Sequence record: PQ014731.1
Direction: 5' to 3' (one strand)
Source: Escherichia phage VB-EcoM-WM
DNA length: 64,000 nt
This document shows, in pieces, positions 24,287 through 25,336 of the stretch. Each line of letters opens with the position of its first letter. The first letter of the stretch is position 1. Both the position numbers and the translations under genes were made by a program. A model generated the notes under the pieces. It ran no database searches, was not told the origin of the DNA, and worked only from the letters and a program-made list of their open reading frames with translations.

Positions 24287-25336
24287 TTAAGCTTCTTCGA
24301 CAATTCCTGCGCCCAGGATTTTTTCATTGAGCTCTTTTGCTGTTTTAATAATATTGTCCACCAGACGCTTACGGGTCTTATCTTTCACCTGAACTTCTTC
24401 GCCGCCGTTCAGGGTGGTTTTCAATTGGGACAAAATGTCCTGAAGCTCTACCACAGAGAATCGCTGCAGATCTTCAGAGGTAATCTCACCCAGTGCAATC
24501 TTAACGGTCTCACCACTCTCCATCTGCAGATTCAGGAACACAGTGTGAACATCACCTTTCATACCATTTGCTTTTGCAGACTCAACAGCATGAACCAGCT
24601 CGTCCAGAGATGTGCATTGGTGAATCTCTGGCAAACCTGCTTCACCTAGCACACCTTCTTCATCACTTTTTGCCAAAAGCTTTTTCGGTTTCTGTCCATT
24701 CTGAATGCGCTGAATGTTTTCATCGTCCAGAATGATAGCACCAGTTCGAGATGCCAGCTCTTCTCCATCCAACCACACTTCGCCACCAGCTGTGATGGAT
24801 GCGATCTCATCTTCTGTCAGAACCCCACCATAGTATTTTTCAATCAGGCGTTCAAAACGTTTCTTCCAGTAGTTAACCTGGGTATTCATGTTCACACCGT
24901 TGCCATAGGTGCCACCTTGATAGTAGTGGAACATAAACTCTGTGTCCGGAGCCACAGTCCGTTCTTTGCAACCCAGCCATAAGATTGTTCCTGCTGAGCA
25001 GCACATCCCCTCGGCGTGTACGACAACGCTTGCCTGAGACTCTCGGAATGCCTGCAAATACGCCATAGCAATGTGAACGCAACCACCAGGGCTGTTAATG
25101 ATTACACGGATACTTTCTTCTGGCTGTGCCATACGAATTGTTTGCAAACGGGACATATGATCCTGCAAATCTTCAAGATCGTCAATATAAAGAACGTGGT
25201 CAACAACAGGTGTTGGGTAGCTGTATGTTTCCATAATACCACCCGGCATACCAAACATTTTGTTACTCATAGGTTCGAAACCGTTCTGTTTTTCTTTCAT
25301 GCCGTGTACCATGGTGCTGCGAGGTGTTAAATTCAT
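24287..25336 (-). CDS. ClpP-like serine peptidase (S14 family) with about 150-aa C-terminal extension
   Basis: INSPGG...GMCCSAG...MFH matches the ClpP Ser/His region; AAGGA RBS. Confidence 0.7.
   Translation of the reverse strand: MNLTPRSTMVHGMKEKQNGFEPMSNKMFGMPGGIMETYSYPTPVVDHVLYIDDLEDLQDHMSRLQTIRMAQPEESIRVIINSPGGCVHIAMAYLQAFRESQASVVVHAEGMCCSAGTILWLGCKERTVAPDTEFMFHYYQGGTYGNGVNMNTQVNYWKKRFERLIEKYYGGVLTEDEIASITAGGEVWLDGEELASRTGAIILDDENIQRIQNGQKPKKLLAKSDEEGVLGEAGLPEIHQCTSLDELVHAVESAKANGMKGDVHTVFLNLQMESGETVKIALGEITSEDLQRFSVVELQDILSQLKTTLNGGEEVQVKDKTRKRLVDNIIKTAKELNEKILGAGIVEEA

Follow-up and report, generated by a model that had tools for sequence, protein, structure and literature searches.

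The gene at positions 24287 to 25336 of the window (the whole stretch analyzed, 64,000 nucleotides from Escherichia phage VB-EcoM-WM, PQ014731.1) probably encodes an early or middle intracellular protease, the Vequintavirinae form (PHROG 5410) of a widespread group of phage Clp-fold peptidases (PHROG 1827) that take no part in virion assembly. A role as a head-maturation enzyme is very unlikely. The gene has been annotated as "ClpP ATP-dependent protease subunit" since the rV5 genome was deposited, where it is ORF122, and is therefore not new; its unusual location dates from the same annotation, so no new element is described here. Its possible use lies in correcting two labels: this protease is probably neither "ATP-dependent" in the ClpXP sense nor the head protease. 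The family is widespread in therapy and model phages (rV5-like phages, the BASEL collection, ICP1, and KVP40-like phages) and is under strong selection.

Gene and genomic neighborhood

The window comes from a Vequintavirus (rV5-like). The 349-aa reading frame proposed in the original prediction is present on the minus strand, with a ribosome-binding site (AAGGA) 7 nt 5′ of its ATG. In a profile search, the protein matched phrog_5410 over its full length (residues 24 to 345; E = 4.5e-155) and phrog_1827 with an E value of 1.3e-39. The gene occurs at 97 to 99% identity in over 100 Vequintavirus records. Compared with rV5 ORF122, it shares 89% nucleotide identity with just 11 amino acid differences, and the dN/dS ratio of about 0.02 indicates strong purifying selection.

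The vicinity of phoH and the nrd genes, also noted in the original prediction, was borne out. A PhoH-like ATPase (25812 to 26600, minus strand; Pfam PhoH, 3.6e-47), which is a recurrent upstream neighbor of the Clp family, is encoded upstream, with NrdG and NrdD beyond it. Between phoH and the Clp gene lies a small conserved open reading frame (25397 to 25708, minus strand; phrog_5456) that corresponds to rV5 ORF121 and encodes 103 aa counted from Met17. Upstream of this pair of genes is a sigma-70-like promoter, TTGACA-17-TATTAT (25739 to 25767, minus strand), which agrees with the consensus at 11 of 12 positions; this predicted element, a consensus match only, coincides in position with the annotated rV5 promoter P121. 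Downstream of the Clp gene is a partial DNA-methyltransferase-like gene (23702 to 24235, minus strand) that matches positions 199 to 381 of the 458 in the phrog_799 profile (E = 5e-67) and has weak Pfam matches to the Dam and EcoRI methylases. A Dam methylase gene is likewise found 3′ of the Clp gene of Barbavirus. The head module, on the plus strand at 59.6 to 64 kb, is about 32 kb from the Clp gene, and rV5 has the same layout.

PhoH was considered as an ATPase partner of the Clp peptidase. This is unlikely because PhoH is an SF1-helicase-like RNA helicase and because the Clp gene lies away from phoH in the T4-, T5-, T7-, and N4-like phages. A PADLOC scan for defense systems gave no meaningful match.

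Clp-fold core

The Clp-fold core spans residues 45 to 215 (24692 to 25204, minus strand) and is modeled by AF2 with a pLDDT of about 85 to 95. It matches Pfam CLP_protease (PF00574) far above chance, at 50 bits against a cutoff of 20.2 (E = 4.2e-13). Foldseek placed the AF2 core on solved ClpP subunits with a TM score on the target of 0.65 to 0.74 and an rmsd of about 3 Å over 160 to 175 residues, and the ClpP alpha/beta fold is present, including the handle helix. The core motifs named in the original prediction were found as claimed, with INSPGG at residues 80 to 85, Ser114 in G-M-C-C-S-A-G, and His137 in M-F-H. The triad positions are Ser114 (24995 to 24997), His137 (24926 to 24928), and Glu186 (24779 to 24781), all on the minus strand. 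Ser114 and His137 correspond to S97 and H122 of ClpP and, like the oxyanion-region motif P83-G84-G85, are invariant in all 21 close homologs; in an alignment of six distant lineages, the Ser, the His, and the G-G pair do not vary. Position 186, equivalent to D171, is Gln in 17 and Glu in 4 of the 21 close homologs, with Glu here; ICP1, KVP40, and four other lineages have Asp at this third triad position. Since most close homologs carry Gln, activity may be reduced or unusual. Ser-His dyads and Ser-His-Glu/Gln arrangements can support catalysis, and the conserved residues suggest a catalytically active enzyme.

The HMM classification that had been proposed as a check was run: the protein is S14-like and has no match to S49, and its scores do not reach the curated cutoffs for genuine ClpP or for the ClpP-related head proteases. 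The NCBIfam ClpP equivalog TIGR00493 gave 33.4 bits against a cutoff of 308.6, and all other ClpP subfamily models were also below cutoff. The best NCBIfam match was the ClpP-related head maturation protease NF045542 (62.8 bits; cutoff, 120), and several head-maturation PHROGs matched at 1e-15 to 1e-23. As the closest families by HMM, apart from its own, are of this head-maturation type, the protein likely has a morphogenetic origin and, by sequence, could still have some role in the head.

Docking pocket

The ClpX/ClpA docking pocket was mapped through a 29%-identity sequence alignment, not an oligomer structure, with what we take to be the E. coli ClpP sequence. In E. coli ClpP, the pocket that receives the IGF/IGL loops of ClpX and ClpA consists of L48, F49, A52, F82, Y60, Y62, I90, M92, F112, and L114. 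Five of these residues (Y60, I90, M92, F112, and F82) align with R77, H107, E109, T127, and E99, respectively, which are invariant in the 21 homologs. L48, Y62, and L114 align with A70, I79, and A129, while F49 and A52 have no counterpart because of a deletion. By this alignment, the hydrophobic residues of the ClpP pocket are lost from the Clp-like protein and conserved polar residues stand in their place. The label "ATP-dependent," in the ClpXP sense, is doubtful because of this replacement and because the third triad residue is Glu, and Gln in most relatives.

Terminal regions

The N-terminal residues 1 to 44 (25205 to 25336, minus strand) are predicted to be disordered (AF2 pLDDT, <50) but are conserved, with no nonsynonymous change in these 44 codons relative to rV5 and with F28, G29, Y40, and P41 invariant in the alignment. 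The AF2 monomer shows no helix A or ordered axial loop ahead of the first core strand; the segment could become ordered within an oligomer.

After the core, a flexible linker (residues 216 to 243; 24608 to 24691, minus strand; pLDDT, about 43 to 45) that varies in length and sequence in the alignment leads to an orphan C-terminal alpha/beta domain (residues 244 to 349; 24290 to 24607, minus strand; pLDDT, 80 to 90). This domain of about 105 aa is predicted by AF2 to consist of a helix, a beta-hairpin, and three helices. A Foldseek search of the PDB with the domain found no match (best E value, about 1), and its sole significant match in BFVD was a 303-aa protein that, judging by its length, appears to be a full-length homolog. 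No Pfam match rose above the cutoff, and a profile of the domain searched against 1.84 billion proteins found nothing beyond its own protein family. A helix-extension-helix DNA-binding motif (SAP or Rho_N-like) was also considered and is unsupported by Pfam, a PDB-sequence profile search, and Foldseek against the PDB and BFVD.

The C-terminal extension had been described as acidic, which it is not in any distinctive sense: residues 206 to 349 have a pI of 5.05, about equal to that of the whole protein (4.98), and form a linker and a folded domain. An acidic tail that acts as a scaffold was rejected on the same two grounds, the matching pI and the globular character of the region. Nor is there support for the "fused scaffold-like tail" of the original prediction, as the region is a small orphan globular domain with no scaffold-like coiled coil.

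Head module and capsid maturation

The head module begins with a portal protein gene (59576 to 61132, plus strand; Pfam Portal_Mu, 2.6e-11) equivalent to that of rV5 gp64, which is present in virions. The next gene (61200 to 61619, plus strand) had been picked out as a small protease-like candidate, and it indeed matches Pfam Peptidase_S78_2 (XkdF-type, PF14550) at 65 bits against a cutoff of 24 (8.7e-18). Its product is homologous to the annotated capsid protease of ICP1 (41% identity; 8e-14), and it is encoded between the portal and scaffold genes in the order of the ICP1 capsid cluster, gp122 to gp125. XkdF has been described as complementary to S77 prohead proteases in jumbo phages. On these similarities, the product is likely the prohead protease. 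This likely head protease is often mislabeled as a DNA methyltransferase.

The following gene (61619 to 62596, plus strand; phrog_2970) encodes a 325-aa scaffold-like protein, the equivalent of rV5 gp62, of which trace peptides only were found in rV5 and CB7 virions. It occupies the position of the experimentally confirmed ICP1 scaffold gp124, which suggests a scaffold function. A head decoration protein (62617 to 63006, plus strand; phrog_2680, 3.8e-40) corresponds to rV5 gp61, which was detected in virions by mass spectrometry with 85% coverage. The major capsid protein gene (63055 to 64000, plus strand) runs off the end of the window; its product corresponds to rV5 gp60 and has an identical N terminus. 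The rV5 virion peptide R.KDEFGIVDLGATLDLVPR.Q covers residues 5 to 22 of the capsid protein in more than 100 spectra. Together with the identity of the two N termini, this indicates that the capsid protein N terminus is retained in virions.

Mature virions often no longer contain the prohead protease, and the absence of the Clp-like protein from virion mass spectrometry is for that reason weak evidence. The virion proteomics proposed as a check on the original prediction exists in part, for rV5 and CB7, and argues against a head role. The rV5 data list 19 loci, and gp122 is absent. The CB7 data list 26 proteins without CB7_184, which is Clp-like, and with CB7_5, the protein encoded at the CB7 position equivalent to the XkdF-type head-module gene. 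The rV5 virion protein gp133 was considered as a possible identity of the Clp-like protein; it is the product of a different, 151-aa gene (window positions 20815 to 21276) with weak mass spectrometry evidence. In ICP1, coat and scaffold form procapsid-like particles without gp211, the Clp homolog. ICP1 gp211 also belongs to a range of genes in which the nucleotide-metabolism subset reaches its peak at 12 min, before the late genes. A literature search found no Vequintavirus transcriptome.

Homologs across phage lineages

The genomic context of the family was surveyed in 11 lineages. This is a sample and not a census, since the family is too divergent for an alignment-guided scan of viral contigs and scans with a single protein recover few loci. 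All eight distant homologs fall in phrog_1827, and in none of the lineages sampled is the Clp gene between the portal and capsid genes. It lies 3′ of phoH, either directly or separated by one or two small open reading frames, in Vequintavirus, ICP1, Barbavirus, ventosus, 5P1c, and contigs L009, L010, and L014, and in CB7, it is within the same nrd-phoH block. Elsewhere, it adjoins frd and uvsX (T4-like KVP40), a dNMP kinase gene (a T5-like phage), or nrdAB (a T7-like phage) or is located in the early arm (an N4-like phage). Members of PHROGs 5410 and 1827 are found among early or nucleotide-metabolism genes, commonly 3′ of phoH, beside a different head protease or none. Many of the phages with the phoH linkage are related myoviruses that also have the XkdF head module in common, so the synteny may have been inherited once and not repeatedly selected. 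A literature search found no experiment on any member of PHROG 1827 or 5410.

Proposed role and alternative explanations

The gene is probably transcribed by host RNA polymerase with phoH and the nucleotide-metabolism block, ahead of the late genes. Its product would probably cleave host or early phage proteins in the cytoplasm, and probably without canonical ClpX/ClpA docking. The C-terminal domain would leave from the side of the core to which an unfoldase normally binds and so may be a built-in targeting or gating module. Capsid maturation would be carried out by the head-module XkdF-type protease with a separate scaffold. For the Clp-like protein, we infer the catalytic activity, the oligomeric state, the expression timing in the window phage, the unfoldase independence, and the substrates. 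A published comparative analysis proposes that phage ClpP is host directed. Of the two roles offered in the original prediction, the protease with a non-structural role is the one favored by the context in 11 lineages, the absence from rV5 and CB7 virions, and the assembly and expression data from ICP1.

The other role, that of a true prohead protease encoded remotely, would have the C-terminal domain target procapsids as in protease-scaffold fusions and would leave the XkdF-like gene inactive or with another function. It draws on the best NCBIfam match and the head-maturation PHROGs, on the fact that such enzymes can be missing from mature virions, and on the C-terminal extension, which recalls the targeting or scaffold extensions carried by many Clp or S49-type prohead proteases. 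The NF045542 score is nevertheless little more than half the curated cutoff, the C-terminal domain is globular and has no relatives elsewhere, and the gene, preceded by a sigma-70-like promoter, lies in the other strand block at a distance of about 32 kb from the head module. The head module has both an XkdF-type protease and a separate scaffold-like protein, which leaves the idea of a remote protease with a fused scaffold unsupported, and the capsid protein is N-terminally unprocessed. The family also occurs in T4-like and T7-like phages, always outside the head genes; T4-like phages have gp21 (presumably including KVP40, as gp21 is a T4-like core gene), and T7-like phages are not known to use a prohead protease. 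With ICP1 particles that assemble without the Clp homolog and CB7 virions that contain the head-module protease and not the Clp-like protein, we give this explanation hardly any probability.

A genuine ClpP subunit, which would assemble into rings of seven or fourteen subunits, either by itself or together with host ClpP, and dock host ClpX/ClpA to redirect ATP-dependent proteolysis, is improbable. The complete fold with its handle helix, the Pfam score above the gathering threshold, the invariant Ser and His, and the Asp at the third position in ICP1, KVP40, and four other lineages are all compatible with it. Against it are the equivalog score of 33 bits (cutoff, 308.6), the lack of helix A and of an ordered axial N-terminal loop in the model, and a docking pocket whose ten alignable positions are mostly polar, small, or deleted, with five of them invariant polar residues. 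The C-terminal extension of about 135 aa would also, from ClpP architecture, exit at the docking face. Substitution of the canonical Asp by Gln in 17 of the 21 close homologs (Glu here), the remodeling of the pocket into a conserved polar cluster, and an orphan domain that could be a binding module would suit a catalytically weak or inactive, ClpR-like binding protein, such as a chaperone, an adaptor, or a decoy for the Clp machinery of the host or for protease-sensing defenses. The invariance of Ser114, His137, and P83-G84-G85 in 21 homologs, and of the Ser, His, and G-G pair in six distant lineages, is instead as expected of an active serine peptidase, and noncanonical triads can be catalytic; a purely binding role is quite improbable.

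According to recent work, certain bacterial CBASS systems respond to the activity of phage proteases and restrict Vequintavirinae; the protease-tripwire CBASS restricts Bas48 to Bas59, with a loop specificity that differs from that of T4 gp21. Which of the two phage proteases acts, and when, is therefore now testable. It is conceivable, if unlikely, that PHROGs 1827 and 5410 constitute a class of unfoldase-independent Clp-fold proteases, expressed by large lytic phages with nucleotide-metabolism genes, that cleave specific host or defense proteins, with lineage-specific C-terminal domains as targeting modules, and that, in Vequintavirinae, could supply the activity sensed by the protease-tripwire CBASS in place of the head protease.

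Comparison with known systems

The window gene is the same gene as rV5 ORF122, with 349 aa and the order phoH, small open reading frame, Clp gene, and partial methyltransferase gene. There is no material difference between them, and the "ClpP" label of the rV5 gene is based on homology. The PHROG 1827 proteins (ICP1 gp211, KVP40 ClpP, and those of Pakpunavirus, Barbavirus, and the T5-, T7-, and N4-like phages) share the protease core with its Ser and His and the location outside the head genes, among early or nucleotide-metabolism genes and often after phoH. Most are 180 to 240 aa long, lack the Vequintavirinae C-terminal domain, and keep Asp at the third triad position. In ICP1 and 5P1c, the protein has its own long C-terminal extension, and that of ICP1 has no homology to the window's extension detectable by hhalign (probability, 0.4%).

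Cellular ClpP (MEROPS S14; E. coli) has in common with the Clp-like protein the fold with its handle helix, the positions of the catalytic Ser and His, and the INSPGG oxyanion region. Identity is just 17 to 29%, and the Clp-like protein differs in its replaced docking-pocket residues, a model without helix A or axial loop, Glu or Gln at the third triad position, and extra N- and C-terminal regions. The head maturation proteases (NF045542; PHROGs 1684, 94, 133, and 2976; Felix O1 gp56; lambda C type) have a distantly homologous core, and many of them also have a C-terminal extension past the core. Their genes lie between those for portal and capsid and their products act inside proheads, whereas the Clp gene of the window is located elsewhere. 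In contrast to phages with ClpP-related or S49-type head proteases, the window phage has a likely head protease of the XkdF type.

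The ORF at 24287..25336 (minus strand) encodes a predicted 349-aa Clp-fold serine protease, and the original observation of a ClpP-like gene lying away from the head genes is confirmed. The ATG has a ribosome-binding site, AAGGA, 7 nt to its 5′ side, and the motifs first read from the sequence are present: INSPGG (residues 80 to 85), Ser114 within GMCCSAG, and His137 within MFH. Residues 59 to 168 match Pfam CLP_protease (E = 4.2e-13; 50 bits; gathering score, 20.2). Residues 45 to 215 were modelled confidently (AlphaFold2, 21 homologs), and ~160 to 175 residues of this core superpose on solved ClpP subunits with a TM score on the target of ~0.7. 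Compared with the Vequintavirus rV5, the gene differs synonymously at 91 codons and nonsynonymously at 11 (dN/dS, ~0.02), with the changes scattered over all parts of the protein. The genes just upstream, also on the minus strand, are PhoH (25812-26600; Pfam, 3.6e-47), NrdG, and NrdD, in line with the first reading.

The gene and its off-head location are already on record, since the rV5 counterpart is ORF122, annotated "ClpP ATP-dependent protease subunit" (PhoH is ORF120; the head genes are ORF60-64), and PHROG 5410, the Vequintavirinae version, matches the full length of the protein (4.5e-155) under the label "ATP-dependent protease," category "other." Novelty is therefore low; a literature search found no experimental work on the gene. 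The region is 92 to 97% identical to 123 phage records, nearly all from Vequintavirus (rV5-like) phages of E. coli. Window positions 22000-28000 are ~93% identical to 19 GenBank MG0656xx "Campylobacter phage" records, and because of this identity their assignment to C. jejuni as host looks doubtful.

HMM classification, proposed as a check on the original prediction, gave an S14-like protein with no Pfam Peptidase_S49 match even at E below 1. In NCBIfam, the ClpP-related head maturation protease model scores highest (62.8 bits; cutoff, 120) and outranks the models of cellular ClpP (TIGR00493, 33.4 bits; cutoff, 308.6). All NCBIfam matches fall under their curated cutoffs, which makes this a divergent Clp-fold member, neither a genuine ClpP nor part of the curated head-protease family. 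The E. coli ClpP pocket that docks ClpX/ClpA comprises L48, F49, A52, F82, L23, Y60, Y62, I90, M92, F112, L114, and L189. When aligned by BLASTP with an E. coli ClpP sequence, Y60, I90, M92, F112, and F82 correspond to R77, H107, E109, T127, and E99, all polar and invariant in the family; L114 and L48 become A129 and A70, and F49 and A52 fall within a 5-residue deletion. By this alignment, the canonical docking surface thus appears not to be conserved, which would make the "ATP-dependent" label doubtful.

The AlphaFold2 model has four parts: a disordered N-terminus (residues 1 to 44; 25205-25336, minus strand), the Clp core (residues 45 to 215), a disordered linker (residues 216 to 243), and a folded C-terminal domain (residues 244 to 343) in which a helix and a beta-hairpin are combined with three helices. 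The N-terminus is conserved, with no nonsynonymous and 4 synonymous changes relative to rV5 and with F28, G29, Y40, and P41 invariant; it forms a conserved linear motif. Ser114, His137, and the P83-G84-G85 segment are invariant in the family alignment. At the position of ClpP Asp171 this protein has Glu186, whereas 17 of 21 close homologs carry Gln and 6 of 9 wider-family lineages carry Asp.

The C-terminal extension, originally described as acidic, is not specially so, since its pI is 5.05 versus 4.98 for the whole protein. Its folded domain has no detectable relatives outside its own protein family: Foldseek against PDB found none (best E, ~1), a profile search of PDB sequences gave a best E of 0.36, no Pfam match exceeded its cutoff, and among 1.84 billion representative proteins a profile search returned only the family itself and its fragments. 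One significant match was found in BFVD, a 303-aa protein that, judging by length, we take to be a full-length homolog. The extension of the homolog in phage ICP1 (gp211) is not homologous to it, so the common core carries extensions that were added lineage by lineage. A 303-aa homolog in Vibrio phage 5P1c (L019:3486-4397) has a C-terminus ending in IDHLKQIADDEGVKYPHNIGIEKLREKILKHL, which by eye resembles a helix-extension-helix motif. Because the C-terminal strand of ClpP forms part of the apical docking pocket, the extension would emerge on that face, where it could serve as a built-in targeting or gating module.

The Clp core is found in 1160 phage records (tblastn), and PHROG 1827, the wider phage Clp-fold peptidase family, takes in all 8 distant representatives checked. 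In none of 11 lineages inspected does the gene lie between portal and capsid genes. PhoH is nearby in ICP1 (PhoH, two small ORFs, Clp; nrdAB upstream, ligase downstream), Barbavirus (PhoH, Clp, Dam methylase), 5P1c (nrdAB, then PhoH, a small ORF, and Clp, then ligase), and Certrevirus CB7 (PhoH, NrdD, NrdG, two ORFs, Clp), and it abuts Clp in Pseudomonas phage ventosus (4-nt overlap) and the surveyed contigs L014, L009, and L010, the last two being metagenomic viral contigs. This synteny may be inherited, not repeatedly selected, because most of the PhoH-linked cases are myoviruses with the XkdF-type head module in common as well. The wider tie to early and nucleotide-metabolism regions extends to phage types that are clearly unrelated: Clp is flanked by frd and uvsX in T4-like KVP40, belongs in Pakpunavirus to a group of small early ORFs with dCMP deaminase and ligase nearby, follows dNMP kinase in a T5-like Klebsiella phage, occupies the early arm of an N4-like Vibrio phage, and is directly 3′ of nrdAB in a T7-like roseophage. 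T4-like phages have their own prohead protease, gp21, and T7-like phages are not known to use one. A near-consensus sigma-70 promoter (TTGACA-17-TATTAT, 25767-25739) is predicted upstream of a small ORF and the Clp gene, corresponding to annotated rV5 P121. ICP1 gp211 lies inside a gene range in which the nucleotide-metabolism subset reaches its peak at 12 min, ahead of the late structural genes.

Several neighboring ORFs were also noted. A 177-aa ORF at 23702-24235 (minus strand) covers only positions 199 to 381 of phrog_799 (DNA methyltransferase, 458 positions) and may be part of a methyltransferase domain or a free-standing fragment; Dam methylase is also 3′ of Clp in Barbavirus. Between NrdG and NrdD sits a 310-aa ORF (27801-28733, minus strand) that carries repeated zinc-ribbon-like motifs, and an HNH-like ORF (29972-30523, minus strand) adjoins a 335-aa C-terminal NrdD piece (28844-29851). 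Because rV5 NrdD is a single 707-aa ORF, these two ORFs (within 27801-30523, minus strand) look like homing-endonuclease insertions.

The original prediction left two roles, a remotely encoded prohead protease with a fused scaffold-like tail or a protease with a non-structural role. The head module is complete without the Clp-like gene: portal (59576-61132) is followed by a predicted XkdF-type protease (61200-61619, plus strand), a scaffold-like protein of 325 aa (61619-62596), the decoration protein (62617-63006), and, from 63055, the major capsid protein. The second protease, flagged earlier as a candidate, matches Pfam Peptidase_S78_2 (XkdF) at 65 bits (cutoff, 24). Its best PHROG, 1530, is labelled "DNA methyltransferase" and matches only over profile positions 244 to 373 of 379, which explains that annotation in many phage records (e.g., CR3, ESCO5, K406, and Eryne). 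In published virion data, the rV5 mass-spectrometry table lists 19 loci without gp122, and the 26 virion proteins identified in CB7, of the same subfamily, include CB7_5, a head-module protein named "prohead core protein protease," and CB7_6 (40 kDa), with no mention of the ClpP-like CB7_184 anywhere in that paper. By itself, such absence from mature virions is only weak evidence, as maturation can remove prohead proteases, but it fits all the other evidence. The most N-terminal rV5 capsid peptide, R.KDEFGIVDLGATLDLVPR.Q (residues 5 to 22; >100 spectra), indicates that the 336-aa capsid protein retains its N-terminus, which is identical in the window. ICP1 shares this head-gene order; its gene annotated as capsid protease is homologous to the XkdF-type gene (41% identity; 8e-14), and its scaffold gp124 has been found experimentally to form procapsid-like particles with coat protein alone, in the absence of the Clp-like gp211. 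A prohead-protease role is not supported; the off-head context, virion absence, and separate XkdF-type protease support a non-structural one.

Two further structural loci were observed. The terminase large subunit (57660-59473, plus strand) is encoded by two or more separate ORFs, among them 57660-58409 and 58736-59473, which fits the description of an intron-split terminase in rV5. The product of 20815-21276 (minus strand; PHROG 7821, "virion structural protein") is a homolog of rV5 gp133, described as "one of the predominant proteins" of the virion; its mass-spectrometry support is two non-tryptic peptides with a single spectrum each.

What makes the gene of interest is that its label as an ATP-dependent ClpP subunit is probably wrong and that it may be linked to protease-sensing immunity. 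A 2026 preprint reports that prohead protease activity triggers a CBASS system that also restricts Vequintavirinae (Bas48-59), and that mutations abolishing T4 gp21 sensing leave Bas51 restriction unaffected; speculatively, either window protease could be a trigger in Vequintavirinae. In a comparative study of jumbo phages, the distribution of XkdF-family peptidases complemented that of the T4-type S77 prohead protease; the study also proposed the host as the target of patchily distributed phage ClpP and described PhoH as an RNA helicase, SF1-like, whose role is enigmatic.
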